Source: Marsupella aquatica (Eukaryota > Plantae > Marchantiophyta). From it: 64,000 nucleotides of DNA. The stretch is from contig OZ316895.1 of assembly GCA_973895155.1 (NCBI GenBank), positions 17,811,437 through 17,875,436 on the forward strand. Reading direction: 5' to 3'. The position numbers and the translations under genes were made by a program. Of the stretch, positions 12,487 through 63,264 are shown one piece after another (the first letter of the stretch is position 1; each line of letters starts with the position of its first letter). Under the pieces are notes generated by a model. That model saw only the letters and a program-made list of their open reading frames with translations, was not told the origin of the DNA and did no database searches.

Positions 12487-12513
12487 TTGCGGAATGGACG
12501 GATCCCATGAGAC

Positions 12514-17289: not shown

Positions 17290-17316
17290 AACGTTGGAAG
17301 GGGCTGGAGTGTCCTC

Positions 17317-38200: not shown

Positions 38201-41200
38201 ATAACAGTTGTTATGGTGAGTATAGTGGGTTCCGTGATAGAGGAATGACATCCAAACCAAGGGGGACAAGAAGGACACACAATGCCTATGCACAACCATT
38301 ATTGACAACGGAAGAGGTAAAGCTTTTCAAGAGTCCATACCTATATCATTGTGGTTTTTTTCAAGGGTTAGACTTGAACTAAACTTGTCACTCTGTGTTT
38401 TGATTTGGTGTTTGTGCTGCCACTGCAGATGGAAGAACGTGAGTTTCAAATTGCTATTCAACATATGGTAGGATCAACAAATTAACCAGTCTGGAGCAAT
38501 TGTTCTCACAAATGCTCCACAGGTAATGTCTTGTATACCTCAACCAGAATGTCTTCTTTGTGTTTTACCACCAATGTTTTGTATACAACGTCATGAGTGT
38601 CTTCTATGTTTCATATAAATGTCCCCATTGTGGTGTGTATTTTTGTAAACAATGACACCACTGTCTTTTGTGTTTCCATATACAATAACATGAATATCTT
38701 CTGTGTGGATTGCAATAGGAGGTTCGTGCACCCCTTGGACCTCTAGATCCAAACTATCTCTGGAGGAACACAACGATGGCAAAGAAACCACGGACAATAA
38801 TGCAACATAGCAGTGTGTGGCTACTTGGGTTGCATGCCCCTGGCACGGTAAAAGTCAGGAAGACATCTACCACAGGAGTATGCCGGGAGTTTTCTAGGTT
38901 TAGGCCCCCGCGAGAGTATGATGAAGATGGTTTTGATTGTTCAATGTACTGCCCATTCAGGGTCCGATGTCACAGGCAAGCTCACAACGGGGCTCATACG
39001 GGGGCTCATATCATTATTGTGTGTGAGCTGAAACACAATTGCCCAACATCTAAACACAAGTGGAGGGGCCCAACACAAAAGGCAGTGTGGTTAGGAGACA
39101 CACTGGCGCCTAGAGTGTGTAGAACTCTGAAGGTGCCAGTCAAAGAACTACTTTGCGGATTCAAGGGGATTATAAAAAGAGCAGCACTTACCACCAAATG
39201 TGGCAAGCAAAAGACTATGTACGGGATCTGCACCTTGGTGGGCAGGAAGACACATTTCAAATAATTCCAGCGTTGATTGCCAGGGTGAGAGAGACTGACC
39301 TTGGTGCAGTGGCAGTCTGGTCCCCAATGGAAGACTCCAACATTTTTTGTGGAGCATTCATTTGCCCATCAGCTACACGAAAAGCATGTACCTACATTCA
39401 ACCTCTCATCTCTCTTGATGCATGTCATACAAGAACACAAAGTACCCCACTCAACTGTTCTTAGTTGCATGTTTGGATGGAAATGGCCAAGGATTGATTC
39501 TACGTTACGCAATAGCTCCAATTGAGAACATAGATAATTGGATCTGGTTTCTGGAATTGGTAGATAGATCACTCTATGGCATTGAATCGCTTCACATCAT
39601 GCCACTCATATCAGACCAACAGAAGGTCTACTTGCCGATGTGAGTTACGTGTGGCCAGGACTGGTAAGATACATGCAACATGTGCAAACCACCTGAGAGC
39701 TAATGTCAAGAACAGGCATGGTAAAGCAACAACATATATTTTTATAGGATGCATATATGCCAATGATGAAAGACAATAAGTCCAAAAACCTTCATTGCTT
39801 TGATTCTACATATATACATTTGTCTTCTTATGTATACACCACATACTCGGTGTTCAATACACTAATATTACCTCTCCTTGAATACATAATGTGAAGTATC
39901 ACTCACGCAAATGTTTTCTTTGTGTATGACATGATTGTATACATTCAAGTATACATTAACATCAATGTTTACCCTATGCACTTGTATCAGATATGAAGCA
40001 TGTTTGAAGCAGCTGGTAGAGTCCATCAAGGCATATGAGAATGCAAATGTTGTAGACTACATAATAATTTTTGATGCAAAACTTTATGCCAGACATGCCT
40101 TTCCACTTCCCCGCATGGCAAAGGTTACAAGCAACCCTGTTGAGCAAGAAAATTCAAGCTTACTCCCCTTGCGCAAATTTTCTCCTTGCAAGTTGATGGA
40201 GTGCATGTGGGTATATGTTCAGCAAAAGTTTAAAGAAACGAAAGCAGTTGCGTTGGCTAGACGTGAAGTACTCACTATTCCAGCCCTGGTCAGGTACAAC
40301 AAGAATCTCAAGACGTTTGGTCAATGGCAACTAGGCAGGTTTGGTCAATGGCAACTAGGTAATCTTCATGCCTAGTCTTGTGTATGCATTACTAGCTAGC
40401 AACATGTTCTGTATACTGTAACATGAATGTCTTCTTAATAGCTCCGTGTTGAATTAAAATACAGTAGCATGAATGTATTCTTTATTTGAATAGTTTTGTA
40501 ATAGCCAAGTTTTCATATGTTCAGGTGTTTGATGATGGTGCGTCCACAGCCAAGGTTCAAACTACATCCCAAAATGGGGTATAACAGCGGTGACAGGAAA
40601 CAGGTAACAGAATTCCTGTTATCAGGTAACTCTTAACTGGTAACAGGAAAGTCTTATGGTAAAAGTATACTTTTTGGCTAAGTTTGCCAAAAATTAACGT
40701 CATTTTCCACCACATCATCAAGTTGAACGTCTTGTTAGTGCCAAATGTTCTACATGAATAATGTCGTCATTGAATATCCTGCTATTTAGATATTGTATCA
40801 TTTCAGAACAGTCCAGTTCAGAAAGCACAGTTCGGCCTACGAGAAGGAAAAATAAAATCCAGGCAGGGATGGAGTAATGTATGGTGGGACCCACCCTAAA
40901 TCCAGTTATACACTTAAACAACCGATCGGCGAAGAAGGGTTCTGGAATTTGCAATATTCCAGACCGGACAGAGTGTGAAAACTAGCGCCCTGTGCTAACA
41001 AAGCTTTAACAGGGAAAAACGTTTAAGTTAAGGGACAACGACATGACAATAACCAGATAAAATTCAAAATTTTAAAATATTAATTTTCTGGAACCAGCGC
41101 CAGGCGCTAACCAAAAGCAAGAAAAAACAAGTGTAATATCCGTTGACTACAGACAAAAACCTTAGTATCCGTTACGAAAAACGACAGTCTCTAGAATGTC

Positions 41201-41208
41201 GTGTTAAT

Positions 41209-44200
41209 CTACAAGCCATTCGCGTTCTGCCTATCCAGCACGAGTCTGACTTCCGCAACTGTGAAAATGGGCTGGCTACACAGGGTAGACTCCTCTACAT
41301 GAAACTTGAAGACATTTATAAACACCCAATACAAATGTTTACAAGGCATATATGGCTTGCCGCGAGAATGACGACGGAAGAAATCCTCACAGGAATAGGT
41401 TGGGAAGACGCAAATTTGGACAAAGTAAGTGTTTGGGGATCGAAGGTTCTCGTGGGTCCGGATTTTGAATTGCTTCCCAAATGCAATTCCAATACCCACA
41501 TCCCACTCGCCATCCAAATTCATAGCTTCTTTCCGAGCCGACTCCATTCGTGTACTATGAGCCAGTGTTAGATTTGATCGAGGTCTGGAGTTTCTCCCAT
41601 TCCTGGTCCGAAGGCGTACGTTGGGGTCGGCGAAATTGATTCTTTCAGGAAATGCGTTTACATTAATTCTCAAGTCAAATGGAACAGGTGTAGCGCGAGA
41701 CGTCGCAGCTATTTGGACCATCAAGACTCCCTGTGCTTCAAGGAACTCTACCTCGGCAGGTGACAGGTTGGTCCCTTTCACAACTGGCAAGATATCCGGC
41801 ACAGGAGGAAGGCGTTCAACACCACGACGCGGGCGGCTCTTGTAGCATGTTTTGTTTGGGCAGAACCATATCATTTCCGCAATGGGTGTGCCTCTGAAAA
41901 TGTGATGTCCGCTGACAACAATGCCGACAATACCTGCTGCCGAATGGAACCCAACTTTTTTCACACGATTTCGACACTCATCCCTCTCAGAATTTCCATG
42001 CAAAGTCCCATTGCACTGAGGCCCTGCCCCATATTTGGCCGTCCGCCACAAATGCCAGGTCCCTCTAGGAACGTCCATTTCCAAAGGAGTTGACTCTGTC
42101 GACAAACGTTGAAGAACAGCCGGAGCACTAAGTGGGGGTTGCGATGATGTTGCTGTTCCTCTGGCTTCAGGGGTGTTTGCGAGGGAATCACTTCCATTCG
42201 TTGAAGTGTCGCTACCGCCGAGGTCCACTATGGGATCTGTTACATTTGCGGGAAAGGAAGTGAAGGCAGTGTTGTTGAGATTCTTCCGTTTGAACCCTCG
42301 AGTATTTGGTGTAGTGATGAGAATGGTGTCATGCCAATGGGAGTCTTGTGGCGAGACAATCCCAGTTGCGAGTCCCTTCCTCTTAACCGACTTTGTGACA
42401 ATATCTCCATTCAGAGGAGAGCTCCTCTCCAGATCCAAATCAGCAATGTTGGAAAGAATCATGTTGGTTGCTTCTTCAAATAACTTGGGTGAACCAGATT
42501 GGTCTGCGGATCGGAATGCTAATTCCCAGATAGTTGGCCCCTTCCCTCTATTGAGTCCCTTCCGATATGCGCTATAACCCGCAACTTGTGACAGAGCTCG
42601 ATTTTGATCAACTTTGCATGCTTCAAAGAGACCCACCATTTTTTTGGTAGCCCATGCTTTCATGGAGGCGTGCCTTGACTTTGACCCGGTACAATTTGGA
42701 ATGAGCGCACCTTCTTCTGCACTTTTGCTCTGCAATAAAACCCGCCCAGACAAAATTTACTTCTTTTGTATAAGCAGCGCCAAGCGCTAGCAATGAGTAG
42801 GAGATAATAAAAGAAGGTTTATCGGTACAAGTTTCGTTTTCTGTAATGTTTGAAGGTTTTTTGAGTGAAAATTAAAGCCTAGCGCTAGTATAAACACACT
42901 GAGGTTTGACTAATAAACGCATCAGGAAAACTTACCACATGAATGAAATTCCCCCACTGACGCCATCAAACAACCCACCAAGATATCCAACTCTACAACA
43001 TCATCAGCTTTCTTGGGACACAGTTTCCCGCTTGCCACCACAACACGATCTCCCTCAAAACTCAATACGTCGCAACGAACGTTGGAGCATTCCTCAGTTT
43101 CTCCCATAGTTGCCGATGTTCTGGTTGCTTACCCTCCAAAACTCCTTTTGTAGAGTGTCGATGGAAAGACTGGTAAAAGTGAAATGCATCAGAGCGTTCA
43201 CGTTCAGGGTCTGGGTGCCCTCCAAAAAAGACATTGCGAATGGCGATCCATCCAGCCTGAGCATTGTCAGCCATAAAACCTTGAATGACAACATCTTGTA
43301 ACCCATTTTCCTTACAAACCTCAATCATAATTCTCCACGCTTTCTCAAAGGACTCCGTGTCTTCAGCTTTTAGTTCGCATGTGAAGATTGTACAAAGAGC
43401 TCGGAAGTTGTGATCGTAAACGTGTGCACTGAAAGTAAACCAGTCGGTTGTCACTCGCTTCATGACATCAAAACTCACCCAAGCTCCTTCCAATCTTCCG
43501 CCGGGTTGCATCTACCGGAGAAGATCTACACCAGATCCATGACCCTTGACTGTCATTTTGAATATATGGGGCCTATCTGCTACACAACCCTGACCCGGCA
43601 GGAGGTACCTTTGGAGGAAAGAAATGTTATTTGATTTTTGCATCCGAGCTAGGAAATCTAACTCACCACGACCAGCCTGGTCCATTCAAACGCTTCGACA
43701 AAGTGATGCAAATTTCTGGGGGGTAGACAGTACCATGAGAGACTTCCAAATCTTCGTTTCTTCAATATCTACTGTCATCCACATTTTTGCAAAGAGCTTT
43801 CACGAGCGAACCGGTTGCGGAATTCAAAATACCAGCCGGCTTTGCTAGAGGATTGGCTTCATGATTTTTTCTTATCAAATCCTCAGCTATCTTCTGAGTG
43901 CTCCTTGAGAAAACTTTCCTACTCTGATGGTTATGCTCACCTATATGAACTGCGAGCCGAGACATGTGACTACAGGTCTCTGTATCAAGAAGGACTTGAG
44001 GGTACATATAAAACAAGCGACCAGGGCAAGACTTCACACAGAAAGGAATCTGCGCACAATAGTGACAGACTACACCACCCTCTTCAATCAACGAACCCAC
44101 CACGTGCTGGCCACTGAGTTTAGGAGCACCATGCCAGGCCTTTGCATTGCATCTCTTCTTTCGCTGAAAGTACTCACAGGACTTGTTCCCGCACTCGATG

Positions 44201-44919
44201 AACCCGGTACACGTAACCTTACCAAATTCCCAATGTTTCTTTGGATGCACGTTCGCAGTTGTCAGAAAAATTTGGGTTCAAATGTAACAATCTTTGGCAC
44301 GGTCCATGTCACGAAGTCTAGATCCCTTGGAGAGCGTTCCCTCAATGGGAGGCAGTTCAAATACAACATTTCCATTGTACTTGTCTGGCAAACAAGGAAC
44401 TTGCTCATGCCGGAAGTCCCCTGCCGAGATAAATCTTGACAGTTCACTATGTCTCGTGGCCTTGAGTAAGGCGTCCATCGCACTCCTCCGGTAGACTTTA
44501 TGACCAACTCCGGAGGTAGCCACCGGCTCATCCTTAACAAAAGCGGAAACCGGAACTTTGTATTGCGATGGAGGAGTGGGTGAAACATCACCATCTTCAC
44601 TGTCAGATATGTCAACAACAACAACAGGAATGTTCCCAACTACTGGTTCCGGAGCGACACGTCTGACATTAAGCGTGTAACTAAGCCCGGCATTCATATG
44701 CCAAAAGCGTACTCCCTCATCTACATCGAATGCCGCAGCCCGTTGAAGTTCTCCACTCATCGATTCCTGTGGAACAATGGACTCAATATCATTCATCCTC
44801 AAATCAAATCTCCCGCAAAGGTAGGTTTCACTAACTTGCTTGTAAGCATCAGAGACTTGCACGGGGATGTTGACGACGTCTCCAGTACAAGCACGTGTAA
44901 TTACAATTGAGCGAGACAT
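41209..44919 (-). pseudogene. GCM-like zinc domain + MULE-type DDE + SWIM transposase (pseudogenised; intron 42935-42730)
   Basis: CTGFIECGNKSC...CHYC...SCPGR...HIGEHNH (GCM-like); WVSFD (D1), GFMADNAQAGW (D2), DAFH (C/DxxH), PNCTGSKSRH (expected catalytic E appears as K, G>A); C-terminal YSCEDF...PCKHLYWVF (SWIM); several TGA/TAG stops at likely CGA/CAG codons. Confidence 0.8.
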
Positions 44920-46032
44920 TCTGGAGAAAATGAAGGAATCAACAAAGCAAATTCCTCCCAAATGGAATGCTTATACTAATGCGTGAAGACGACTGACCGT
45001 TATAAAAGTCGATTGAATACGACATAGAATTGTGTCCGTTGAAATCATAAATGAAGAGTTTGTCCTTTTTGCCCCGGTAAGTGCGGGTGTCAGGGATATT
45101 TATTGTGTCAAAATGAACACATATAGACCAAGATAATTCACATGATTTCAGCAGCGCCTGGCGCTACCAAAAATTCCATCATTTATAAGGTTAGAATTTG
45201 GTCACACACCAGACTAGCGCCGAGTGCTAGCATTATAGTGGACACCAATAAGTCTACTATTTTGTATCTAAAAATGCAATATCGTCCAAATTTAAGCACA
45301 ATTCAGGGACATATGTACTAGCGCCGGGCGCTAGTATTGGTACACCATATTTAAGGACCAAATGTGAACAAAATTAAACTTCCTACGTCCTAAAGTTCTT
45401 CATTTCCAAAAAAAATCACCTACACTATGACAAAAACATAACCTTGAATGGACCACGGAATGGGTAGCGTCGGGCGCTATCTATTGAAGACATTAAATTG
45501 TATGACCAATGTGGTTAAAAAATTTTACTAGCGCTAGCATTGCATTACCAAGTTTTAGTAGTCTGGTCAACGGTAATATTTAACGGTAACTATGGTTAGC
45601 GTGATCTTCACGAAAATAGTTTAGCGGATTCTACATTAATATCTGTCACAGTTCTTAGATTGTCGCTTTGTTTTAACGATAAGTAATACCCAATTTCATC
45701 ATAACATCTCTTAAATAGATTACATCGAGGGAGATAGCATTGATCAATCGCGTATAATACTCCATCAACTATTAATTTGGTACGAAGATTTAGTACTCGA
45801 TCGTGAGAATTGTAGTGTACGACCGTTCGTACAACACTCATCACGGGAGACGATGGATGCAGTCCCCTCCTCGTCGAGGGGGTATAGTGTTGTGGGGGAT
45901 CGTGATCATGGCTATTGCGAGTCTTCTGAGTCTTCATTTTCAGGTTCAGTGTATACACGTTGAGTGACGAGGTCAAGTGCATCGCTTGTTCCCATCTCAA
46001 GTAATTCGTTTCCGAAGCCGACGTGAAAAAAG

Positions 46033-49000
46033 ATGGAGAATGTTGACACATTTGCAATCGGAGATGTCTCGTTCTTGGAGACCGACCTTATTTTGAAACA
46101 TGTCATGTTCTTTGGGAAGGATTTCCGAGGGTTTAACAAGGAGCCTCCTAGGATTCCGCTGTGTTGGTTGGTGCACATGGAGGTCGTCTGCACTTTGCAG
46201 AAAGATAGCTCCTCCATTGACAAGTTGAAAGACTCTTTTTGTAGTATGGGATACAATTCGTCGATAGGAATGAGGTTTTATGTTCAGCCAGCGGACGCTG
46301 AGGGAGTGACGCTCACTTGCACATAGGAAATTTGTAATAATTGGGATCCAATATGGACATCCGAAAACAAAAAGTTTGAGGAAGAATGTGCGGCAGACCC
46401 CAATTTTATTGTTCTGAAGGATAAGATGTTCTCAGTTTTTGACGAGAACCATCGGTTGTACTCCTGGACACTTGTCACTAAGGAGAATCCAGAAAACCCG
46501 AAATACCACCCACGAGTGCTTTGTACTGTCTTCAATGGGGACAAGGGTTCACTAATTGAAATTGAAGCAGCGATGCACACCGTGAACCAATAAGTTTGTC
46601 TTTATAGCATATCTTGGAGAGGAATTGTTTTACGAGCGCCCGACGCTGCTTAAATGGTTTTCTAATTCCTTTGTTTTCCTTCAGGCTTGGACAAGCCGTG
46701 GTCGAACCGTCATGGATCCTTGACGCAGATCGAATCAAGAGGATTTTGATTCACGACCTGGAGTACTATAGTAAGCTCATCGACCCTACGAATTATAAGA
46801 AGTTTGAGCAGATCAGGCTGAAGACGCGGAAAGGATCCTGGTACACGAAGAAGATGCCTCAAGAGGCTTTTGTCTATATTCTTTGTGAGAATAAGATTAA
46901 ATCATATTCCAACCAGTTCAAGCTTGACATGGAGTCTGCTGCGGCTCTAGGTACCAATTGGTCGGCCGAGGAGGTTTCCACAAGGCATGCCATAATGATG
47001 AAGGAGGCCACCAAGGACTGGGCAGTGAAAACATCAAAAATCACTCCTTTGTTGAGTCCTGAATTTGAGGACTTTCTCTCTATGTGTGCAGAAATGTATG
47101 TTGTGACGGAGAGAAATAAGCGAGAGAAGAAACCTGATACCGTCTTGTGTACGATGGACCGAGCCAGGATTTTTACTGCTGTTTCCGCACTCGACCCCAA
47201 GCTCAGGAGTAATTTGCTTGTCGCCCATTGCAATCCTGAGCTCCGAAGGCAATTCTTCCATCCGAACAGCGTCAATGATGATCCAGTAAAGCAGTGGTGT
47301 CATACCTGGATTACGTGGAACAATGTAGAGGGGATTGCAGTGGGAATGTTACAGTGTGCTTTGAGAGAGGTCCAACCTATCATTCCCGAGAATCGCTTGG
47401 AAGCCTGGGCATGTGAATCTTTTGAAGCTCTCATTGATATAGTTACTAATGATTTCAAGAGATACAGAGACTCGGTGAAGAGTAAGTTTTTTAATACAAT
47501 GTGGCCTTCGAAGTATCCGGACAAAGAGGACTACTCTTTGAAGAACCAGAAGTGAGCAAAAAGGTACCTCTACCGATTTTACATCCACATGGAAGTAACT
47601 AGACCTGATTACTTCTGGGCATATCCTGCCGCTTTTCAGAAGTGGACAATAATATCAGAAGGTGACAATTTATCTGATTTGTACTCTATGTACCCCGCGG
47701 AGGGAATTTTCCCAGCGAGACCTTTAAGTGAATGGGAGAGAACCCACTGTCCATGGTACCTAGATATAGACAGATGGGACTCGCCCTTTGATCACCGAGA
47801 AAAGGATGCTTTCCACAAGCTCTCTAAGTCCCAGATACCAGTCAATATTGTTTCTGACATGAAGCAGGGACTAGCGGACGATGTAGATAAGTCCACAACA
47901 GAATTGCAAATGAACTGTGAGACCACAGTTGTTCACGTTGACCGAAGCCGGAAGCCTCGCGCGAAAGGGAAACCTGATACTGCTGTCCCAAGTGAATCAA
48001 CAAAGTCCAGGAAAAAACGTAAGTATAAATTGTAGTTCTTTGGTTAGCGCCTGGCGCTGCTATGCCATTCAATATATGTTACATTGCATTTGTCTCATTT
48101 GTTTCATAAATATATATATTTTCTTCCATCTCTTCGAGAAATTTGGCCAGCACCGGGCGTTAGTATACTTTGCATTTTCCATACGCTCAAAATCTAACTT
48201 CGACTTCCATTTGAGCAGGGAGAAAGTCAGACGCCATAGGCAGCGGCGATACAAAGATAGATGCCACCCCAGAGGCATCTGAAGCCAATACAGGGCCTCC
48301 ATTTGACCCACTTACACCCGTCGAGAAAGGGAAGTCAATTGCTCTAGTAGATGCGGTCAGTACTAGAAAGAAGCGAAAAAGGGCAATTGAAGGTGGATCA
48401 TCCTCCGCTCGGGAAAGTGCGGCTGCAACAGGTGTTCAACGAGAAGTTGGTGACTTCAAAAACACTCTTTCAAGGCATTGCATGGTTGAGTCTAGCATCT
48501 CTGAATTCTATGACACAACGTTCAACAAAGAGGAGAAGCCTGACTGGGTAAATGGTGTAGAGAAATGGGCAAAGGACCTCATGAAGTCGGGATATCGAGA
48601 CAAGGGAATTGTCCGTGGGGGGAAGGAAAGATCATTTGGAGTACACGCAGGATTCATTTACCTTCCTACGGGTCTGAAACCATCGCTGCTAGATAGAAAA
48701 GTCCCAAAATGGAATACCCCCGACCACACACTGGCAACATCATTCTTTCGTGGAATGGACCCATTTTTATCAGATGACAGAATGCTAGCAGTTTTGCATA
48801 ATGGGGAGTATGATCCTATGTCTCAGGTTATATCCGCATGTCAGGAATCGAAGAAGTTTCATTGCATCTCCACACACAATGTTGTTATGTCAGTTCCTAT
48901 GTACGCACCGAAGACTGACCGACAGGTAAATTCCAAGTCGTGATCTCTGTTTTTAACACTCGTAAATGATGAATGCATGGAATGACATATCATTCTTGGT

Positions 49001-49984
49001 TTATCTCGCAGATATTCACGCTCAGGCTAGACGTCTTTTGCGAGTATCTCAGAAAGGGAAAGTACCCAAGGACTCAAGGTTTAGACCTCTGTCTGTTACA
49101 GAAGATCCCTCCATCACTAATTTAATTGGGCTTCCCACTCTCAATATAGATCCAACACCTGAATGGAATTCGCAGGGAATACCCGTCTGTCGGTTGGATT
49201 CATGTAGTCTGTGATAGAGCTCATCACTCGGCCTCGGGACATTTTCATAGATTGGACAGTTGGTTCGGGTAGCTCTTTTGTAGCCGGAGACTATTCTGGG
49301 AGGTTTGTAATTGGACTGGAGAATCGGAAGGATTTCGTTGAAACTGGTTCCAAGGTGTTCTTAAATCTACTCTCTTCTAAGGAATTAGAAACCTTGCCTC
49401 CCCCAATTCAACCACCGGAAAAGAAAAAGAGGGACAAGCTCCTGTCTGTACTTAATTTTGACTCCGATGATGAGTCAAGTGGGGGGACAGTAGATGAAGT
49501 GGACGGGGAGACAACTCAGGGGGGGAAGGAGCAATCTGCTGGCGAGAGTGATAGCGATGACTCTTCCAAGTAATGTTCTGAAACTCATAAGCTTCTTTCT
49601 CTTTTCCAGCTCCTTCATGCATTTTTTGCTATTGATTGTATGTTTCAATTGGTTTTCTTATTTGGTTATCTACCCAGGTCCGAATGGAATACCAGAAAGC
49701 ACTTCCAACTCAGAAGAAAAGTTGCACGTTTTGAAATGGATACACCAGAGAAACCATTTGTTTTGCCGTCTTACGCTGAGAACGCTGCGAGAAAGGAGGA
49801 TAGTCAAAGGACTCTGTGCTGGGAAAACAAAGGTCTCAGCCTTCAAAGAGGAGTTGACAGAAAATTTGTTAGAAACCCATATGTAGACGACGTTTCTAAG
49901 AGCAAGTATGTTGATGACGAAGCAGTCTCTACCGACAGATCATAGAGCTCTGGATCGGAATCTCAATCAGAAACCGATAATTGA
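46033..49984 (+). pseudogene. ParB/Srx-like N-terminal domain + beta-class N4C/N6A DNA-methyltransferase-like C-terminal domain (about 5 exons, pseudogenised)
   Basis: VFDENHRLYSW at ~46435-46467 resembles the ParB (I/V)DG(N/H)HR motif (G>E). GFIYLPTGL...VPKWN...FLSDDRMLAVLH at ~48650-48800 occupies the motif IV region. IELITRPRDIFIDWTVGSGSSFVAGDYSGRFVIGLE at 49214-49321 matches the SAM-binding motif X/I/II of the N6_N4_Mtase family. Introns at ~46590-46684, 48019-48218, 48926-49011 and 49570-49677. Confidence 0.65.
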
Positions 49985-50375
49985 TGTATTTTTCTTTTCC
50001 AGATTTTACTAGCGCCGGGCGCTGTTATGAAAAGACATGTATTTCATTTCATATGCTCATAATAAAATTCTAAAAACCACTTGTTGTCTTTAGTAGCGCC
50101 CGACGCTGATATCGAGGTACATGTATTTCTTATATAAAAGGTTTTAAATTGGTCTCTTCCTTTAGTAGCGTCGGGCGCTCCCCAAATGTGCACGGTTTTC
50201 CTTGAACCTTTACATCATAATATCATTCATGCGTTCTGTCGCCATCCTGTCGCCATACGTATATTGTCGTTACGTAATTAAGTCTGGCCTGTCTCAAAAT
50301 AATCGTGTCGCGATATGATTGTTTACTCAACGGTCCTATGCCCGTTCAAGCTCGCATGTTACGGGTGTCCACCAA

Positions 50376-50931
50376 TCACCGTCCTTTGGTAGTCACTATG
50401 TCAACCTTTTGGAGATGGTCGATAAAGGTGCGGACATTGTCGATAAATGGACGGACATTGTCGATCTGGTTGCGGACTTTAGGGAAAGGTGCGAACGTTG
50501 TCGAGCTGGGTGCGGACGTTAAGGTGCGGACATTGTTGACCTGCATGTGGACGTTGTCGAGCTGGGTGCGACCAATGGAGAGGAGGGAACCAATGTCGTT
50601 GGACGAGATGCTTGCCTTCTTCAGTCCTTCCCGAGTTCGACCGGTGGAGAGCCACTTCAGCTCCTTCAAATCAGTTTGTGTCGACACTGAGACCGAGACA
50701 TCGACTTTTCGGAACCGTAAATCTCTTCCTTACGACAAGGCGATTAGTCCTGGGGAGAGAAATATTCCGTGGACTGGTGACCGACAGACTCCATGCGAAT
50801 TTGACGATCGGTTCTTGTTTCATCAAGTCGTTCCTGCTAATGGTCAGCAGCCCATTGAACGTCGTGTGCAAGAGCAATTGGGGCGCGTTGACTTCCTTGA
50901 TGCAAATTTTGCGGGCCCTGGCCAAGCTCAT
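50376..50931 (-). pseudogene. Possible third gene of the nested Mutator-like element, with a heptad (DNVR) repeat
   Basis: Two overlapping ORFs (50671-50931 and 50376-50687) in a CpG-rich segment; 21-nt repeats encode QLDNVHM/QVNNVRT/QIDNVRP/FIDNVRT. Confidence 0.35.
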
Positions 50932-53689
50932 GAGTTCCCTCTTCCAATTATATTCGGCTCCGGGGTTTAGGATTCAAGAGAAACTACAAGCGAGCGAGGG
51001 CGGGAGTCGATGATGACTGTCAATCACAGAGCTAAAGGTGTTCCAATCGCAATTGCTTAGGTTATTTTGGAGTGCAACCCTACGGCGATTAGGTTCCTAG
51101 GCAGCTATATTTAAGCTAGCGCCGAGCGCTGCTAAAGCTGGATGCTTTCCATATCCATTTTTCAGTACTTAATGTTTTGTTAGGATTTGGTAATCTGGGT
51201 AATATGTTTTTGCCCATTTTGATAGGAAATGCTGTTTGGATCGACCCATTTTCCTCTCCATGGTGTTACACATGGAAGGGCGGGATTGTAGTTTTAAGCT
51301 AGCGCCGAGCGCTACTTATACTCATTGCTTTTCGTCGCCCATGTAATCTCGGTGATATGTTTTCGCCCATTTTTGAAGTAAATGAATTTGTGATCGGCTC
51401 AATCTCCAATGTCTGGTTTTCCTCTTGATGGCGTTAAACATGGATTTCGGGATTTTGAGGTTTAAACTAGCAATGAGATCCGGATTTTATTGTTGTATGA
51501 CCCTGCCTCTGTTGATTTGAATTGCCTCATTTTTAGCCGCTCATTGTCTTATCGATTGAGGTTACGTAGATTTTCGTTTGATTTTTCCTTCTTCTATGAA
51601 ACCCTACCAGCTTTCTATTCGCTTCATTGATACCAGCGCTGGACGCTGGTAATCATCGCAAATTTGGGTCGGACTACCCGATGGGATATTTCCTCCGGAA
51701 TTAGACGGTTTTAATGAAAATGACTCAAATGGGCTTTAGTTTTGATTGTTTGGAATCCTTTTTTTGGTCCGATGTTTTTGGTTTTTACCTCCAATTCTCC
51801 TGGTAACAGTAACTGTTTCCTGTTACTGTTTCCTGGTTCCTGTCTTTTGTAAATACCCCCCAAAATGAGGAGTACCTAGTGTCGCTATCATCAAAGAAAT
51901 GTTGCACTTGTTGGGAGCTGCAAGAGATGGTGTGGCCATGTGAGCATATAATGGTGTGGGATGACCAGGAAGGCAGAGATTTTTCTGCTCATTCTCACAA
52001 ATGTTGGCAGACTGCTTCAATTAGGGCTTTGTATGACAATGTTTTACCTAGCTTTACTGTATCAGACTTAATGCCAAGTCCAAATTGTGTTGCTCCTATG
52101 GCTGCTAGGAAAAGGGGCAGACATAAAATGGTCTGCATCAAACAGGGTCGTTGTGGGGGAGGCATCCACCTAGGGCTCTTGGAGAAGGCAAAGATTCATT
52201 GTTTGACTCCCTTGGACAACTATTCTTGAGATATCCACTAGATGATGATCCAAACAGGGTGGAACCCTTTTCAACAGCAAACACTATTGCTGGACTTCCA
52301 ATTGTTCAAGTTCAATCGAGGGCAAAGAAAGCGGGGCCTAACATTGGGAAGTGCAGGTGCAGTTAGTGTGGGCAGGTTGGACATAACCAAAGATCTTGTG
52401 ATAAAGTCCATAGTGCGACGCCAACAGATCCGGCAAGAGCAAGGATCCAACATTAACAATCTTCTTGTATATATCATGACTTGTGGGCTTCATGCATGTG
52501 TGGTCTCATGCTAGGGTCAAATTTTAAAATTGCCTTCATATGCAGGTGGATAATGGTGATGAAGTCAATTTGGAGCACCCACCTGTGTCACCCTTTCCTT
52601 GGGAAGACCAAATACTACAGATTGAATATAGTATTGAGTCGACAGCACCAACAGCAAGCACAAGACCAATCCAGACCATTGTATCTTAGCCCCTTCTCCC
52701 AAATAGTGAACAACAATTTCCACAAGCTTTCATTGATAGGTGCATGGAATTGGCCAATGAGGCTGCAATAGTGTCAGGGATTTGGGTCACAATATCATGT
52801 TGATATTACTGAACCTTACTAATTTATTACTGAACTTTGGTTGTGCATCAAAATAGACTCTTGTCACATTTTTCCACCATTATTCTCTCATGAGTACAAC
52901 ATATTCAATCATGTTGTCTTCATGTTTCTCTTCCATCCTTGCACGTGAAGACAACAACCATGTTGTCTTCTTAACTTCCTTCATTGATATTGAAGACATT
53001 GACCATAATGTCTTCAAATTTTCAAATTTGAATCTACTTCCGCAATGATATTGGCAGGACCGTTGGTGTCGATTGAGTGTTCCATGGAGAATGTGCGCAT
53101 TTTGTGAGCGGACTCAAGCGAACATCTTTGAAGTGGTCCATGTGAGTGACAGCGGAGATCTTAGGAGACCAGTGCAGTAGAGGACGGACAGGACAACACT
53201 GCAGTGCCAGAGAGAGAGGTTTGAGTAGATTGTGCAGCACCAGAGAGAGCAAGAGCGCCAAGGATAGGATTGACATCTGGCAATGACAAAGTTCAGTTGT
53301 TTTGGGCATTGGGGTTTGCCATATGGACCGTATATGCAGTTTTGAGTGCACTATTCTTCTTCTTCCATCGCATGTTGGAACAGGTTTGTGTTGTCTCCAG
53401 TGTGGAATTGAGATAGGCTGCCTCCCCTTGCTCAGAGTACGACGCCATCAAAACTAGAGGGTCATGATTCCCCTGTAGTGGCTGCTGTTGGGCTACCAAA
53501 ACCTGTATCGGCTCGGCGCCAGGGTGCTAATGCAAGTCCATCTTTGTCATCCTCACAAGCACAATTGGTACTAAGGACAAAGCAGCTCCTCCTTGTGGTA
53601 CCTACAGCCCACAAAGACATTAGAATACATCGACAAAGAGGTATTCACATTCCACAATGAAGCAATTGGACACCAATGATGAGGACCAA

Positions 53690-56040
53690 GGAATTTTGCT
53701 GTTACACCCTTAGGCATAACTGTGAGGAGTTGGCAGCCAGTGCAGGGTCTGGTGTTGGCGCTGGTATAGGGGCTGGTGCTTCTGCTGGTCCTGGTGTAGG
53801 GGCATGTGCTAGTGGTGGTCTAGGGGTATGGGCAGGTGCGAGGGCAGGTGTAGGTGTTGGTGTTGTTACAGGGGCAGGGGCTGAGTATTCATTTGTTGGG
53901 ACAGGGGTTGGGGCAGGCGCAAGGGATTGCTCCACCAAATTTCCCTTTCCTTTTTGCCTTTTGCTTGCTTTTTCTTGTTGTTGCCCTTCCTAAAATCCAA
54001 AGCAACATCAAAAGACATTGACAAAGAGGTATTCACATTACTCAAAAATTGGACGCCGCTCATGAGAAGGAATTCAATGTGGCCTAAGACACAAAGGCGT
54101 ACCTAAGAGGGGTTGGTTGCTGGTACTGGGATTGCTAGTGCCATTGGTGCTGAGGACATTGCTGACACATCCCTTCCCCTTTGTCTTCCTCCCTACAATG
54201 AACAAAATTGTTAATTGACATAGAAGAAGTGACGGTTGTGTATTCACTCCCTGCAAAGCAATTTGATAAGGAAATTAGCTTGGTACATGAAGTCATACCT
54301 AGGAGGGGTTGGTTGTCGATACTGGGATTGCTAGTGCCACTGGTGTTGAGGACATTGCTGACACACCCCTTCCCCTTTGTCTTCCTCCCTACAATGAACA
54401 AAATTATTAATTGACATAGAAGACAGTGAGCGTTGTGTATTCACTCCCTGCAAAGCAGTTTGATAAGAAAATTAGCCTGGTACATGAAGGCGTACCTGGG
54501 AGGGGTTGCTTGTCGGTGCCGGTGCTGCTGCTGGTTATGGGGGCACTGGTGATACACCCCTAAGTCCCCTTCTACTTCCTCCCTACAATGGAGAATATCA
54601 TTAAGTGACTTGAATACACTGAGGGTTGTGTATTTAACCCCTGCAAAGTAATATGAATAGAAAGGAATGTGGCCTTGTACATGAAGGCAAACCAGGCTGA
54701 CTTGTATCAGATTTTTTGTGCACGGGCTAGAATGAAGAAATTGTAGTGCACGCCAAAGACAATTAGGTTGATGTATTCAGACTTTGCAAACCATTTCAAA
54801 CTAATGTTTTTACAGAAAACACAACTTAGGTAGACCTGGGACTTGCAAGTAACCACTTCCAAGACTTACAATCTGTGGTGCAAGGGCTGGTGCTGGTGAT
54901 TCCACTGCTACACATCCTCCACTTGCCCTTCCCCTTTGTCCCTAGACTGAAGAAATTGCAGTGCACGCCAAAGACAATCATGTTCATGCATGTATTTAGA
55001 CATTGCAAAGCATTTCAAACAAATGTTTTTACAGAAAACACAAAGGCAGACCTGGGAGGGGTTTGTTGACGTTGAAGGGGCTGGTGCTGCTTCTTCTACT
55101 GGTATACCCCTTCCCCTTCATCTTTGTCCCTACAATATATGAAGAGAATGCTTAGGGGAGTGAAAAGACATTGGGGTTTAAATATTCAGACTAGATTGCA
55201 ATTGAAGGACTTCCAAGTAAGCACTTTTGAGACTTACAATCTATGGTGCAAGGGCTGGTGCTGGTGATTCCACTTCTACAACCCCTCCACTTGCCCTTCC
55301 CTTTTGTCCCTAGAATGAAGAAATTGCAGTGCACGCCAAAGACAATGAAACAGATGTATTGAGACATTGCAAAGCATTTCAAACAAATGTTTTTATAGAA
55401 AACACAAAGGCAAACCTGGGAGTGAAAAGACATTGGGGTTTAAGTATTCAAACTAGATTGCAATTGAAGACTTCCAAGACTTACAATCTGTGGTGCATGG
55501 GCTGGTGCTGGTGATTCCACTTTTACAACCCCTCCACTTGCCCTTCCCCTTCGTCCCTAAAATGAAAGAAATTGCACTGCATACCAAAGACAATGAGATA
55601 GATGTATTTAGACATTGCAAAGCATTTCAGACAAATGTTTTTACTTGAAACACAAAGGCAAACCTGGGAGGGGTTTGTTGACATTGGAGGGGTTGGTGCT
55701 GCTTTTTCTACGGGATGGGGACTCCACTGGTACACCCCTTCCCCTTCGTCTTCGTCCCTACAATGTATGAAGAAAATGCTTAGGGGAGTGAAAAGACATT
55801 GGGGTTTAAGTATTCAGACTAGATTGCAATTGAAGGACTTCCAAGTTTGCACTTCCAAGACTTACAATCTGTGGTGCAGGGGCTGCTGGTGGTGGTCGTG
55901 TTGCTGTTGCTCGTACCGACTCCAATAGTACAATCTGTGGTGCAAGGGCTGGTGGTGCTGGTGCAAGTGGTGGTAAGGACGCCAAGACTAACATACACGG
56001 TACAGGGGCTGGTCTTGTTGCTACGACTGGCGCTATGAAG
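53690..56040 (-). repeat. Tandemly amplified exon-intron modules encoding low-complexity TKGKGK/PT-rich peptides (probable accessory gene of the host Mutator element)
   Basis: Repeated CCCTTCCCCTTTGTC(TT)CCT(CCCT)ACAATG units at ~54170, 54367, 54926, 55287, 55540 and 55736, with minus-strand AG acceptors and GT donors. Confidence 0.6.
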
Positions 56041-56082
56041 TCTGGGAGTAGAGTCTTTGGTGTAGGGGTTGGTGGTGCTACC

Positions 56083-56764
56083 TATTGAGCATAGACGACA
56101 TTCGCAACTACAAGCCCATGAACCATCCAACGTACAAGAGTTGACATAGAGAGATATGTAGTTCACCTCCACATGAGACTACGTCCACGGGAACACACAA
56201 GAGCTTTACTGCACTCTAGGCCGATCGGCCATACCAAGCATCGACAGCATAAGTTCTCCCTATCTCTCAACTAGCTCCGTAACAATGAACCTTACTGTTA
56301 AGGATTGCTCTTAGTCTTGTGACTCATAGGTTACGGCACTTAGGCTAACCACAATTAGGATTTTAGCTGAGGTTAGATTAGTCGTGTGTGACCTTGTATA
56401 TACCAGGGCTAGTGTAAGCCGCTGGTGGGTGGTGCTTACTCATTGTAACAGAACAACAGGAGGAAGAGAGAGAGCATGTGTGTTCGTCTACTCTTGAAGT
56501 AAAGCTTGAGTGTTCGTGTGGACGTAGCCTTGGAGAAGAGGTGAACCACGTAGAGATTGTGTCGACTACGTGTGCATGGAATGAGTCATGGTTGTATGGT
56601 CGTTGCGAATGACGTCTTAGTTCAACACTTACTCCCACCAGGGGCTGGCACCAGCCCTGACAATATACACAACAACACTACCGCTAACCTTAGCTAAGTC
56701 CTAACCCGAGTTAGCCTCACTGTGGTTAGTTCATGAGTCACAAGACTAAGAGCAATACCTAACA
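56083..56764 (-). repeat. Copia 3' LTR, containing an inserted solo LTR
   Basis: Matches 62917-63264 except for a 337-bp insertion; terminal TG mutated to TA. Confidence 0.9.
56296..56627 (+). mobile_element. Solo LTR of a related copia family, inverted relative to the host LTR
   Basis: TGTTAAGG...TTCAACA flanked by TSD CTTAC (56291-56295 and 56628-56632). Its ends are similar to the reverse complement of the host LTR ends (ATTGCTCTTAGTCTTGTGACTCAT; GTTGCGAATG). Confidence 0.9.
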
Positions 56765-56774
56765 AACTCCCCCT
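56765..56774 (-). other. Copia polypurine tract
   Basis: AGGGGGAGTT on the - strand adjacent to the 3' LTR. Confidence 0.85.
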
Positions 56775-56986
56775 TGACTCTTGTCTTGGGGACTGGACTA
56801 ATTGCTACCATATGGAATCCTCAGCGGGAAGTTCTAGACAATCACCTAAATAGGTCTCCCCTTAAAAACCACAAGGGTTAACTAAGGGTTAACTAGAACT
56901 AAGCCGTAGCCAAACTGGAATGAGTAATCCATATACAAATAGTCACACATTGCTAAATAACTCTACTTGCACAACAACTGCAAAAT

Positions 56987-59900
56987 CTACAAAGTAGCAC
57001 GATGTCTTGATAAAGTGTCCAAAGGAATCACTTTGGTAAAGACATCAGCGGGATTGAGCTTTCCATCAATCTTGACTAGCTCAAAAGTTTTATCAGACAC
57101 TGCTTGCCTGATAAAATGGTACCTGATATCAATGTGCTTCACCCTGCTATCCATCACCTGGTTAGCAACCAAGTGAAGAGCACTCTGACTATCACAATTT
57201 AGAGACATTTTGCCATGCTCTAAACCCATCTCCGTGATCAACTTATCCAACCGAATTGCTTCCTTTACTATTTCTGCTGTTGCAACATATTCTGCTTCTG
57301 TAGTAGACTGAGATATACACTTCAGCAAGGTAGATTTCCAACTAATACATCCTCCTCCAAGAGTAAATACAAACCCAGTTGTAGATCTCCTTGTATCCAG
57401 ACAGCCTCCATAGTCAGAATTTACATAGCCAACTAACGTTCTATCTGATCTGGCATCAAATAGTAATCCATAGTCACGTGTTCCCTTCAGATACCTGAGA
57501 ATCCATTTCACAGCTTCCCAATGTACCTTCCTTGGATTTGACATGAATCTGCTAACCTTGCCCATTGTTAGGGCCAAGTCAGGCCTAGTACAAGTCATCA
57601 AATACATCAGACTGCCTACTGCCTTCTCATAAGGAATCTTAGCCATCAGACCTTTCTTCACAACATCCGTAGGAGAGAAAGCCGATGATAACTTGAAATG
57701 TGAAGCTAAAGGAATACTCAGTGGCTTACAATCCTCCATGTTGAATCGTGCAAGTACCTTCCTCGCATACTTGCCTTGATTCAAGCATAACTGTCCAGTA
57801 TTAGAGTTCCTAAAAATCTCAATCCCTAAGATCCTCTTGGCCTTACCAAGATCCTTCATCCTGAATTCAAAACTCAATTTTGCCTTGAGTTTGTCAACCT
57901 CAGATTGATCTTTAGCCACAATTAGCATGTCATCCACATAGATAACCATAATGATGAAACCAAATACATCATTCTTGATTGATTCTGTATACACACAAGG
58001 ATCATACACCATCCTTGTAAAACCTTGAACAAACATGAAATCATCAAACGCTTGTTCCACTCTCTGGGAGATTGCTTCAATCCATACAAGGACTTGAGCA
58101 ATTTGCAAACTAAGTTCTCTTGGCCCTAGCTTTTTCATAAAGCCTAGTGGCTGTCTCATGAAGATCATCTCTTCCAAGTTGCCATAGAGAAAAGCAGTAA
58201 CAACATCCATCTGATCCATCACCAGACCAAAAAACACAACAAGCTGACACAAGATCCGAATTGTAGAATACTTAGCCACCGGTGAAAAGACCTCATTGTA
58301 GTCCACTCCTTTCTCCTGAGTGAACCCCTTGGCAACAAGCCTTGCCTTGTAGATCTTATCTCCACCCTCTGAAGGACTGTCCTTCAACTTGTAAATCCAC
58401 TTGCTGTCCATCACTTGTTGACCTGTTGGAAGCTCCACCAGCTCCCATGTCTTGTTGTCACTCAAATATTGCAACTCCCTCTGCATTGCTGCATTCCACT
58501 CATGCTTCTGCTCTGAAGCACAAGCCTCACTGTACGAAGAAGACTCTCCTTCTTCCAAGATCAAAGCCATATCATCATCATCAGGTGCAATGTCAATATC
58601 ATCTAGCTTAGATGAGTCTGCCCATTGACCATACTTGGTAGAAGCTCTAGTAGAACGACTGGAAGTTCTTGTAGTGGATGATTCAGGCTGATCTGGTGCT
58701 GCTGCTGGCTGAATTTGAGGTACCCCAGTAACAACCTGCTCCTCTTGTTCCATCACAGGAACCAGCTCCAAGCCCGGAGCTTCTCCATCTCTCCTGTCAT
58801 GAACAACATCATGACTAATCTCCCCCTCAATCCGGTCCGGTATGGGAGATTTCCCCTTGTCAATATGGGAGTCCTGAGAACTCTCCCCCTTCTTTGATGA
58901 TCTGGACTCATTAAAGGATACATCTCTACTGACAATTAGTTTACAGGTGACTGGATCCCATAACCTATAACCCTTTACACCATTCTGATAGCCAAGAGAA
59001 ATGCACTTCTTCGACTTGGACTCTAACTTGGATAGAAGCTGGGAAGGTGTAAGCATATAACCATCACATCCAAAAATCCTCAAATGTGAATAATCTGTTG
59101 GATGCTCGTACCTCATTTCAAATGGCATCTTGAATCCAATAGAACTGGATGGAGAAAAATTTACCAAATAAGCTGTAGTGTTGAGAGCTTCAGCCCAAAA
59201 CTCATGTGGTAAGCATGATTGACTCAACATACTCCTCGAGCGTTCCAATAGTGTTTGGTTGAGCCTTTTAGAAACACCATTCTGCTCAGGAGTATAACTT
59301 GTTGTGAGATGATGTGTAATCCCTTGCTCCTTACAATACGTTCCAAATTCCCCAAAACTGTATTCACCGCCATTATCCGATCGAAGATATCTCACTTTTT
59401 TACCAGTTTGATTCTCAACTTGGGCTTTCCACTCCTTAAAAGTGGCAAAAACATCAGACTTGTTGTGTAAAAAGTATATCCACACATACCTTGAGTAATC
59501 ATCTATGAACGTGACATAGTATAACCGTCCAGAATGTGAGGGAGTACGGGTTGGACCTCACACATCACTACGTACATACTCAAGTACCTCCTTGCAGGTG
59601 TGAGTTCCAACTCCAAAGGGTTTCTTGTGTTGTTTTCCAAGCACACAATACTCACAGAATTCCAACTTACAAGATTGTAAATTAGAAAGTAATCTATTTT
59701 TCTGAAGAAGAGCCAAACCTTTTTCACTCATGTGGCCCAAACGAAAGTGCCAGAGCCGGGCCATCTCCTCATGAGATAAAGTTACATTGGCTTCATCAAA
59801 GACTACATTGCCCTCCAAAAAGTATAGATTTTTATGTCGCTTTCCCTTCAATACAACTTTAGTACCAATTGAAACGTGAAGGACACCATTAGCAGAACTC

Positions 59901-61053
59901 CACCGATGGCCATTTGCTTCTAAAACTCCAAGTGAAATGAGATTTTTCATCATGCTGGGAATATGTCTCACATTCCTCAACATTCTCACAACACCATCAA
60001 ACATCCGAAATCTAACAGATCCAAGTCCAACTACTTGACATGGGATTCCATTTCCCATCAACACTAAACCGTTGGAAACCGTGTAAGAACTGAAAAAATC
60101 TCTTCTAGAGCAAATGTGAAAAGTACATGCACTATCTAGAATCCAGTCATCACTACCCGGATTTGACACTACGTTGAGAGCATAACCTTGGCATCACAAT
60201 ATGTCATCATCATCGAGTAAATCTACCTCATGTGTGCTCGATGTCGCGTTAGCTGATGCAGTAGGGTCCTTTACTCGATAATCCCTTTTCATGTGGCCAG
60301 GCTTGCCACATCTCCAACATGCAAGAGGCTTCCTCTCTTGCGATTTCCCTTTGGATTTAGATCTCCCCCGTGATGTAGATCTAAATCTGTTATGCCCATT
60401 TGTGCGCTGCGCTGGTCTTCCATGGTTCACGTTCAGCGCAGTGCCAGAAGAAGATGTTGTCTGTGCTTGACCCAACTTCTTTTGAGCATCATCAGACAGT
60501 AATGAGCTCACCACCTCATCATACAAAATGGACTTCAGATCTTTGTATAAGAGCACCTATTTCAAGCCCTGATAAGATGGCGGTAAGGAGCTTAGCAGAA
60601 GCAAAGCCTTATCCTCATCTTCAACTCCCTTACCCAGATTTGACAGATCCACCGCTAGACTGTCAAATTCATCCAGGTGATCCTACAACTTGCTCCCTTT
60701 CTTGAGCCTGAGGCTCATCAACAGAGACTTCTTGTACAGCCGGTCTGACGCATCTTCCCGGTAGTACTTCTCTCTTAGAGCCTTGAACAGTGACACGCAA
60801 TCTGCATAATCATCCAACTTCTTGATAATGTGCGGCTTGAGATAAAGCATCACTGTATTGACAGCAATCACCTGCTCCTATCTCCACTGCTTCTCTGAGA
60901 TCTCCTCTTCTCCATCATATTGCTCTTGCAAAGAGAGCAAATGAGCTAAGCCTATGGCCCAAAGAACACCCTTCACTTGCTTCTCCCACAGCAAGTAATC
61001 AGTACGACCATTGTACTTCTCCACCTCAAACTTCACTCCTCCAAATCTTGCCA
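56987..61053 (-). pseudogene. Copia gag-pol polyprotein, frameshifted
   Basis: FEVEKYNGRTDYLLW (gag); CWRCGKPGHMKRD; WILDSACTFH (PR); WHFRLGH...CEYC; LRSDNGGEY, PEQNGVS (INT); YKARLVAKGFTQ, QMDVVTAFL, IYVDDML (RT); EAEY, CDSQSA, KHIDIRYHF, NPADVFTK (RH). Confidence 0.93.
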
Positions 61054-62902: not shown

Positions 62903-62914
62903 GCTCTGATACCA
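62903..62914 (-). other. Copia primer-binding site (initiator tRNA-Met)
   Basis: TGGTATCAGAGC on the - strand, 2 nt from the 5' LTR. Confidence 0.92.
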
Positions 62915-62916
62915 CT

Positions 62917-63264
62917 TGTTGAGCATAGACGACATTCACAACTGCAAGCCCATGAACCATCCAACGTACAAGAGTTGACATAGAGAGATATGTGGTTCAC
63001 CTCCACATGAGGCTACATCCACGGGAACACACAAGAGCTTTACTGCACTCTAGGCCGACCGGCCATACCAAGCATCCACAGCATAAGTTCTCCCTATCTC
63101 TCAACTAGCTCCGTAACAATGAGCCTTACTCCCACCAGGGGCTGCCACCAGCCCTGGCAATAATTATACACAACAACACTACCGCTAACTTAGCTAAGTC
63201 CTTACCCAAGTTAGCCTAACTGTGGTTAGCTCATGAGTCACAAGACTAAGAGCAATACCTAACA
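62917..63264 (-). repeat. Copia 5' LTR (348 bp)
   Basis: TGTTGAGC...CCTAACA, followed by TSD CTACC. Confidence 0.93.

Follow-up and report, generated by a model that had tools for sequence, protein, structure and literature searches.

What does a gene that joins a ParB-like domain to a DNA-methyltransferase-like fold do in the genome of a liverwort? The question is raised by positions 46033-49984 of a 64,000-nucleotide stretch of Marsupella aquatica DNA (contig OZ316895.1; the whole of this stretch is called the window below). The analysis pointed to a broken accessory gene of a Mutator-like transposon, the intact protein of which would likely be a palindrome-binding, anti-silencing factor with a probably dead methyltransferase domain; taken as a whole, this reading is held tentatively, with a little less than even confidence. 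An earlier note, made from the letters of the window, had described the gene as a ParB-methyltransferase fusion with an atypical catalytic motif. That note was silent on the broken state of the gene, on the carrier transposon and its palindromes, and on the algal precedents for ParB-methyltransferase genes.

Structure and relatives of the ParB-methyltransferase gene

46033-49984, plus strand: ParB-methyltransferase gene, five predicted exons, about 1150 codons in sum
46033..46589, plus strand: predicted exon 1, putative ParB/Srx-fold domain; reads DENHR where sister copies read DGNHR; premature TAG at 46324
46685..48018, plus strand: predicted exon 2, conserved all-helical region; TGA at 47553, CGA in sister copies
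48219..48925, plus strand: predicted exon 3, basic linker followed by the first half of the putative methyltransferase fold; motif IV YLPTG at 48659-48673
49012..49569, plus strand: predicted exon 4, second half of the putative methyltransferase fold with motifs I and II (S-adenosylmethionine, SAM, site); frameshifts, TAG at 49205
49678..49984, plus strand: predicted exon 5, tail that is also present in the Riccia proteins; the TAG at 49943 is either damage or the genuine end

From homology, we infer that the gene is spliced into these five exons. Four introns (46590-46684, 48019-48218, 48926-49011 and 49570-49677) were consistent with the homologs, and three of the four had GT..AG borders, intron 1 of this copy starting with AT (a dead donor). 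A relative of 60% identity, L001, which is one 1.9-kb contig and the single locus obtained from 71 pattern matches in a metagenome scan, carried intron 1 at the same position and in the same phase, with a GT donor. The argument of the earlier note that the introns speak against a bacterial origin was thereby upheld, and all the peptide motifs that it had relied on were found at the locus: VFDENHRL at 46435-46458, IYLPTG at 48656-48673, VPKWN from 48701, with LSDDRMLAVLH further on in that exon, as well as IELITRPRDIFIDWTVGSGSSFVAGDYSGRFVIGLE in the open reading frame (ORF) 49208-49573. Exon 4 aligned to the Riccia profile, although homology did not fix its frame across about 49075-49162.

Three premature stops interrupt the window copy (TAG 46324, TGA 47553 and TAG 49205), with a possible fourth in the early TAG 49943. 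Exon 4 carries frameshifts with a net frame change, the sister copies having one extra base after 49162. Because of the internal stops, the AT first donor and the net frame change in exon 4, the window copy is a pseudogene.

A search with the exon-2 translation returned 108 related proteins at E<=1e-3. Among the 30 of the 108 that were looked up, the named relatives came from Riccia sorocarpa and Calypogeia fissa only, the remainder being assembly fragments, and no algal protein occurred by name. Two Riccia gene models (1191 and 1207 amino acids) matched exons 1, 2, 3 and 5 in order and were colinear with the window gene; given these models and the 108 relatives, the gene is not a product of chance. 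No related locus was obtained in a viral scan or in a plasmid search with exon 1, and a word-based search with a piece of exon 3 found no relative among 67 candidates.

The Riccia homolog of the neighbouring transposase (R1sor_008879) bears the locus tag next to that of the ParB-gene homolog (R1sor_008878), and another Riccia gene model, R1sor_026403, fuses pieces of the transposase and the ParB gene. On the strength of this locus order and the fused model, the linkage between transposase and ParB gene is common to two lineages.

A methyltransferase fold with a conserved, altered motif IV

Motif IV precedes motif I in the window gene, which is the permuted, beta-class order already pointed out in the earlier note, and the related protein P0122 spans positions 16-217 of the 221 of the PF01555 profile. 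The cut-off of this profile (26.7) was passed by two Riccia proteins, at 27.0 and 31.7. The top Foldseek match was CcrM (E 2.7e-5), and 35 of the 37 matches listed were beta-class or MT-A70 enzymes, the other two being RNA methyltransferases. For the same domain the atlas returned phage PF01555 clusters at 0.95. The SAM motifs I and II (DWTVGSG..GLE in the window, DFAGGWG..AE in Riccia) aligned with phage DNCMGSG..GIE. Profile, Foldseek, atlas and phage alignment agreed, and a beta-class N4/N6-methyltransferase fold at the C-terminus, as the earlier note had predicted, is supported by the sequence comparisons and the structure models. That note had named profile searches as a way to refute its view of the C-terminus, and the two Riccia matches above the cut-off went in its favour. 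Several points weigh against the assignment. The methyltransferase model had a mean pLDDT of only 49.8 and, like the model of the ParB-like domain, was built on a Riccia protein and not on the window's family; in a wide structural search, beta-class enzymes reached a Z-score of 5.6 at most, with a half-domain match to Trm14 ranking first at 6.6. By sequence, the phage matches were weak (E 0.01 or worse). Pfam gave only sub-threshold rows on 16 pieces of the window, including N6_N4_Mtase at E 0.007 and SWIM at E 0.019, and sequence searches against solved structures were uninformative.

Two groups of labels were considered and rejected. The Pfam rows TRAPP, Anthrax_toxA, DUF5400 and NYN on the window pieces (E 0.05-0.23) were attributed to chance. 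The UniRef label 'Trimethylguanosine synthase', attached to several Riccia proteins, was set aside because PF01555 was favoured by the profile, by the fold and by the atlas alike.

The earlier note had proposed checking whether intact copies show D/S-P-P-Y/F at motif IV. The sister copies read YLPTG and the Riccia proteins DLP[ST]G. In the register of the alignment, D-L-P-T-G stands opposite phage D-L-P-Y-G, and the Y-L-P-T-G of the window opposite the D-L-P-T-G of Riccia. An aromatic fourth residue was present in 0 of 23 relatives covering the site, so that neither these relatives nor the window's family had the catalytic pattern (D/S/N)-P/L-P-(Y/F/W). At 48608-48760, 32 of 40 differences among the sister copies (the best 40 of 62) were synonymous against 25% expected (binomial p 5e-13), and none of these 40 changed FIYLPTGLKP. 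Within the motif, the codons for I, P, T, G and L differ at their third letter while the residues are constant. Given this variation, the constancy of the residues and the synonymous excess, the odd motif IV is maintained: YLPTG is a family state kept under purifying selection, not decay. The earlier note had offered a motif decayed in this copy or a catalytically dead family; this copy is indeed decayed, but the damage lies elsewhere and YLPTG is not part of it.

Substitutions at motif IV are reported to inactivate related enzymes. The change of SPPY to APPA abolishes the activity of rotifer N4CMT (PMC8885841), and type I enzymes were inactivated through motif IV mutants (PMC5100572). By its sequence, the domain is probably a pseudo-methyltransferase, with the strongest case in the window's family, which lacks both the aspartate and the aromatic residue. 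Against this stand the Riccia copies, which retain the aspartate of motif IV as well as the SAM motifs, and the origin of all 23 counted relatives in one species, Riccia.

The N-terminal ParB-like domain

The substitution A46445G, which replaces E by G and gives DGNHR, was dominant by depth in all four sequencing runs, and DGNHR was also found in 12 of the 14 relatives covering the site and in L001. Because the sister copies and the relatives have DGNHR, the DENHR of the window copy is a private decay from a DGNHR family state. Thus, the G-x-x-R nucleotide motif of the ParB/Srx fold is present in the family, with DENHR in the window copy, and the DGNHR that the earlier note had proposed to look for in homologs was recovered.

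Structural comparisons were made with a model of 551 residues of a Riccia protein (pLDDT 87.9). The top 13 of 50 rows in a second structural look were Noc, ParB, KorB, PadC or a ParB-N domain (Z 7.2-5.3), with sulfiredoxins at 4.8 at most, below the ParB-family chains. An unbiased structural search placed KorB at rank 10 (residues 26-181, 95 aligned, rmsd 3.1, Z 6.0). The atlas neighbours of the domain (Riccia P0111, 150-340) were headed by eukaryotic DUF3723 clusters (31-47% of members) and also included a ParB_N cluster at 0.92. Modest as the structural and atlas results are, in combination with the DGNHR motif they support a ParB-type fold for the N-terminal domain, in agreement with the earlier note. 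The opposite view can draw on the long helices that outranked both KorB and PadC (rank 25, Z 5.8) in the unbiased search, on Z-scores that all stayed below 8, and on Foldseek E-values of 0.38 or worse for ParB and 2.0 for sulfiredoxin. The alignments of several Noc/ParB chains extended across the DNA-binding domain, as far as about residue 395, at an rmsd of 6-16 A and Z <=7.2. Pfam gave no ParB hit on 15 long relatives, only a few weak, unrelated rows.

Part of the helical region of exon 2 is predicted by the model to correspond to the ParB DNA-binding domain, while its second half, examined within a larger model, gave no clear structural match, only generic long helices. As for the DUF3723 neighbours, we take the fungal proteins of this family to be accessory genes of Starship elements; a literature search found no paper with both terms. 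Giant transposons of eukaryotes may commonly carry ParB-like cargo.

The gene is carried by a multi-copy Mutator-like element

40577..51858, no strand: whole Mutator-like element, 11,282 bp, with a 9-bp direct repeat on both sides
40568..40576, plus strand: left target-site duplication CCCAAAATG, perfect 9-bp direct repeat
51859..51867, plus strand: right target-site duplication CCCAAAATG, perfect 9-bp direct repeat
40577..40664, plus strand: left terminal inverted repeat, short and imperfect, beginning GGGTAT, with GGTAACA-like subrepeats
51783..51858, minus strand: right terminal inverted repeat, short and imperfect
41209..44919, minus strand: transposase gene, broken (stop at 44278-44280, frame changes), from ORFs and Riccia homologs
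50278..50970, plus strand: third open frame (230 codons between stops), containing a tandem repeat of 21 bp

The ends of the element are secure, since contigs from three of the four sequencing runs join 40567 to 51859 and since excising the element in silico restores one frame of a SWIM-like exon in the surrounding transposon. Terminal inverted repeats of about 80 bp agree with a Mutator-like element, a superfamily in which such repeats can be long, short or absent, and the 9-bp duplication falls within the 8-11 bp range given for Mutator-like target-site duplications (PMC6446971).

The transposase-like gene, Cys/His-rich in its N-terminal part, diverges from the ParB-methyltransferase gene across a shared 1.1-kb region, and the Riccia homologs P0148, P0149 and P0075 match both of its ends. 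By eye, its sequence contains what we take to be a D..D..DxxH core (43065-43511) and a SWIM-like CxC..CxH C-terminus; a Pfam scan of the transposase pieces gave neither a MULE nor a SWIM hit above threshold. The third open frame (50278-50970) had no Pfam or NCBIfam hit and no match among the collected relatives.

Contigs on a 13.5-kb stretch comprising the element and its flanks numbered 2,170-5,303 per run in three runs from two organisms, and the element therefore belongs to a multi-copy family; a third organism yielded 221 contigs on the same stretch. In runs X1 and X3, high-depth contigs carry 33 other letters instead of 41114-42949, which suggests a deletion derivative without the C-terminal exon of the transposase. 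The transposon split by the 11,282-bp element (about 38400-40567 and 51868-52730) is another Mutator-like transposon, depleted in CpG and containing a SWIM exon, and other copies of it occur without the insert.

The ratio of observed to expected CpG (CpG o/e) of the 11,282-bp element was 0.82, compared with 0.34 and 0.19 in the interrupted transposon and 0.30 in a nearby Copia element. A Gypsy element in the window reached 0.92; for this reason CpG retention is not specific and was taken as a weak hint.

Palindromes in the non-coding parts of the element

40984..41108, no strand: two palindromes (40984, 41096), downstream of the transposase
42776..42788, no strand: palindrome in a putative transposase intron
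45153..45478, no strand: four palindromes (45153, 45216, 45320, 45466) between the divergent genes
46635..46647, no strand: palindrome in intron 1 of the ParB-methyltransferase gene
48046..48161, no strand: two palindromes (48046, 48149) in intron 2 of the ParB-methyltransferase gene
50011..50179, no strand: three palindromes (50011, 50095, 50167) downstream of the ParB-methyltransferase gene
51118..51647, no strand: three palindromes (51118, 51301, 51635) near the right end of the element

The palindrome AGCGCC-N-GGCGCT occurred in 16 copies (<=2 mismatches) in the 11,282-bp element and in none of the other 52,718 bp of the window, against a Markov expectation of 0.125. Exact AGCGYCNRRCGCT was found at 13 sites, compared with 0.00 in shuffles. 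None of the 16 palindromes lay in coding parts, although these make up 67% of the element: four were placed between the divergent genes, four in introns and the rest downstream of genes. Intron 1 of L001 (551-990) contained a tandem array of 13 copies of AGCCY-NN-RGGCT with a period of about 20 bp, and this second palindrome was absent from the window at <=2 mismatches. Both palindromes have the outer arms AGC...GCT in common and differ in spacing.

These counts have to be read with caution. The consensus was drawn from the same sites that were then counted, and coding constraint by itself would expel any motif from exons. The L001 palindrome comes from one contig and could be an unrelated intron repeat, and the comparison between families is one of two loci.

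Proposed role of the intact protein and its alternatives

In the reading that we tentatively prefer, the protein of an intact copy would be a ParB-type dimer predicted to bind the element's own non-coding palindromes, with AGCGCCNGGCGCT as the candidate site. Reading of the palindrome would probably be gated by CTP. The dimer, together with the probably inactive methyltransferase fold, might then shield the element and its divergent shared promoter from silencing, giving the protein the role of a parS-like self-recognition helper.

In the first alternative, the enzyme would be active in spite of its unusual motif IV: the ParB-like domain would target this amino-methyltransferase to the palindromes, and it would write N4-methylcytosine (4mC) or N6-methyladenine on its own element; 4mC at CG or CCNGG sites would block the 5-methylcytosine of the host. 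We consider this unlikely. The alignment of motifs I and II with phage enzymes and the two Riccia scores above the PF01555 cut-off speak for it, as does the aspartate in 23 of 23 Riccia relatives counted, in a count anchored on that aspartate and with the aligned copy P0133 lacking the region. The palindrome itself contains GCGC and CCNGG, and self-modification has been proposed for an algal protein (PMC12477816). The lack of the aromatic residue in all 23 of the same relatives is harder to accommodate. In the window's family, the Asp is replaced by a Tyr, which none of the 40 differences listed changes. The inactivating motif IV substitutions in known enzymes point the same way, though they were reported as double changes to Ala.

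Helping transposition, by loading at the palindromes and bridging or compacting the 11-kb element in order to pair its short, imperfect ends, is quite unlikely, even though ParB proteins spread along and bridge DNA, the terminal repeats are short and imperfect as this role would have it, and gene and transposase occur together in two lineages. The palindromes show no crowding at the ends; those closest to them lie about 400 and about 210 bp inside, and 7 of the 16 are in the shared promoter region or in the gene's own introns. Retention of the methyltransferase fold would also go unexplained.

Alternatively, the palindromes could be sites for the transposase or for a host factor, with the ParB-methyltransferase gene acting independently of them. 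The link between protein and motif is predicted, not direct, and a Mutator transposase alone is reported to activate cognate copies in a sequence-specific manner (10.64898/2026.08.24.746577). A palindromic site would nonetheless suit a ParB-type dimer, and the L001 array sits inside the ParB gene's own intron. Moreover, inverted-repeat arrays of the Bostrychia Plavaka elements are described as adjoining ParB-domain genes despite a different transposase (bioRxiv 10.1101/2025.02.11.637652). This explanation was judged decidedly unlikely. A host gene, such as a relative of Marchantia DN4MT1, or bacterial contamination is highly improbable, even with liverwort proteins as the named relatives and phage enzymes as the nearest look-alikes of the methyltransferase domain, and is largely refuted by the element structure; the gene lies between terminal repeats and a target duplication, sister copies occur on thousands of contigs, the introns are conserved in a relative, and DN4MT1 has TSPPY, its paper not containing 'ParB' in the main text.

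The preferred reading of a palindrome-binding, anti-silencing accessory protein can be extended to a ParB-parS-like system of land-plant Mutator elements, in which a CTP-gated clamp fused to a pseudo-methyltransferase would load at the palindromes specific to its element, spread along the element, block host methylation and co-evolve with its site between families. This extension is speculative and rather doubtful. If true, plants would have an anti-silencing system that is independent of VANC and second to it, and a ParB clamp would be at work on eukaryotic chromatin.

Other content of the window

Positions 1-19533 contain nested Gypsy-type long-terminal-repeat retrotransposons, the repeats of which are 98-99% identical; an ORF of 608 codons lies in one of these long terminal repeats. 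Intron-bearing host genes occupy 20717-27000, including a uroporphyrinogen-III methyltransferase-like gene and, on the minus strand, exons presumably related to oxysterol-binding protein. Degenerate repeats of 190-370 bp at 53700-56070 look like repeated minus-strand proline-rich exons with introns. A Copia-type retrotransposon follows at 56073-63267; its terminal repeats are about 96% identical, and it contains internal inversions close to either end.

Comparison with known systems

ParB-methyltransferase genes of eukaryotic transposons are already known as a prediction in algae, so far from algal sequence, with the proteins predicted to methylate their own element. The accessory protein of Sola1-1_Ec32 from Ectocarpus is described as having 1104 amino acids, with a ParB-like and an N4C/N6A methyltransferase domain, and as being encoded opposite the transposase, on the other strand; the same paper cites similar proteins of green and red algae (PMC12477816). 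The window gene shares with it the two domains in one protein (about 1150 codons here), the orientation opposite to the transposase and the proposed binding to its own element. The likeness is one of architecture and orientation by description. Sola1-1_Ec32 is a Sola-1 element of a brown alga with a 4-bp target-site duplication, whereas the present element is Mutator-like, with a 9-bp duplication, and resides in a land plant. The algal protein was treated as a predicted active enzyme, while motif IV here is non-canonical and conserved; the passages of PMC12477816 and a word search of its supplement yielded no motif IV sequence for the Sola1-1 protein.

The Bostrychia preprint (bioRxiv 10.1101/2025.02.11.637652) suggests that the ParB protein of a transposon binds to neighbouring arrays of inverted repeats. 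As in the window, its Plavaka PAG3/PAG2 genes provide a transposon-borne ParB-like protein near inverted repeats and a PF01555 methylase domain in the same element. In those elements (EnSpm), two genes are found in contrast to the one fusion here, one joining ParB to a 2OG oxygenase and the other joining the methylase to a SET domain, and the repeats form tandem arrays, compared with a dispersed arrangement in the window element and a tandem one in L001. A literature search, with most subscription journals outside it and with Bostrychia supplements that may cover relatives, found no land-plant Mutator-like carrier of a ParB-methyltransferase gene; within the same limits, neither a conserved non-catalytic motif IV nor a defined family-specific palindrome was found in print for such genes. 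The altered yet conserved motif argues against a simple 'writer' model. Three features make the idea testable: the ends of the element are defined, the candidate site is precise and takes another form in a relative, and the catalytic motif is both altered and conserved. Gene models of full length are available from Riccia, and Marchantia, a related liverwort, serves as a laboratory model.

Inactive methyltransferase domains have been reported from DIRS1 elements, and the same source describes ParB-HTH fusions that belong to another clade (Iyer 2016, PMC4738411). With CcrM, M.BceJIV, the phage DLPYG enzymes, rotifer N4CMT and Marchantia DN4MT1, the window domain would share the permuted fold, the motif order IV...I and the SAM motifs. 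It differs from them in motif IV, which reads D-[LM]-P-[ST]-G in the Riccia proteins and Y-L-P-T-G in the family of the window gene, compared with (D/S/N)PP(Y/F/W) or DLPY in beta-class enzymes. The SPPY of the eukaryotic 4mC writers (TSPPY in DN4MT1, SPPY in N4CMT) is likewise replaced here by DLP[ST]G or YLPTG. Rotifer N4CMT is a host silencing enzyme (PMC8885841) and DN4MT1 a host sperm enzyme; judged by its motif, the window gene is not of the DN4MT1 type.

VANC of the Arabidopsis VANDAL elements is likewise an extra gene of a short-ended Mutator element, with short family-specific motifs in introns and in intergenic and terminal non-coding regions (PMC5735166). The window element has a non-coding motif that may be family-specific, with a different motif in one relative only. 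VANC motifs are described as non-palindromic and in one orientation, and VANC binding and demethylation were shown by experiment (PMC5735166), whereas the present system is known from sequence; no domain was seen in common between the two proteins. Bacterial ParB, Noc and KorB (PDB 6SDK, 7OL9 and 8QA8) resemble the window protein in the predicted N-terminal fold, the DGxxR motif, the helical region and the candidate palindromic sites. Unlike them, it has large insertions, a fusion to a methyltransferase fold and a eukaryotic host, and no ParA was seen within its element. Should the binding and the anti-silencing role be borne out, a bacterial chromosome-segregation module would have been reused against plant epigenetic defence, and could serve as a sequence-specific tool for local de-silencing.

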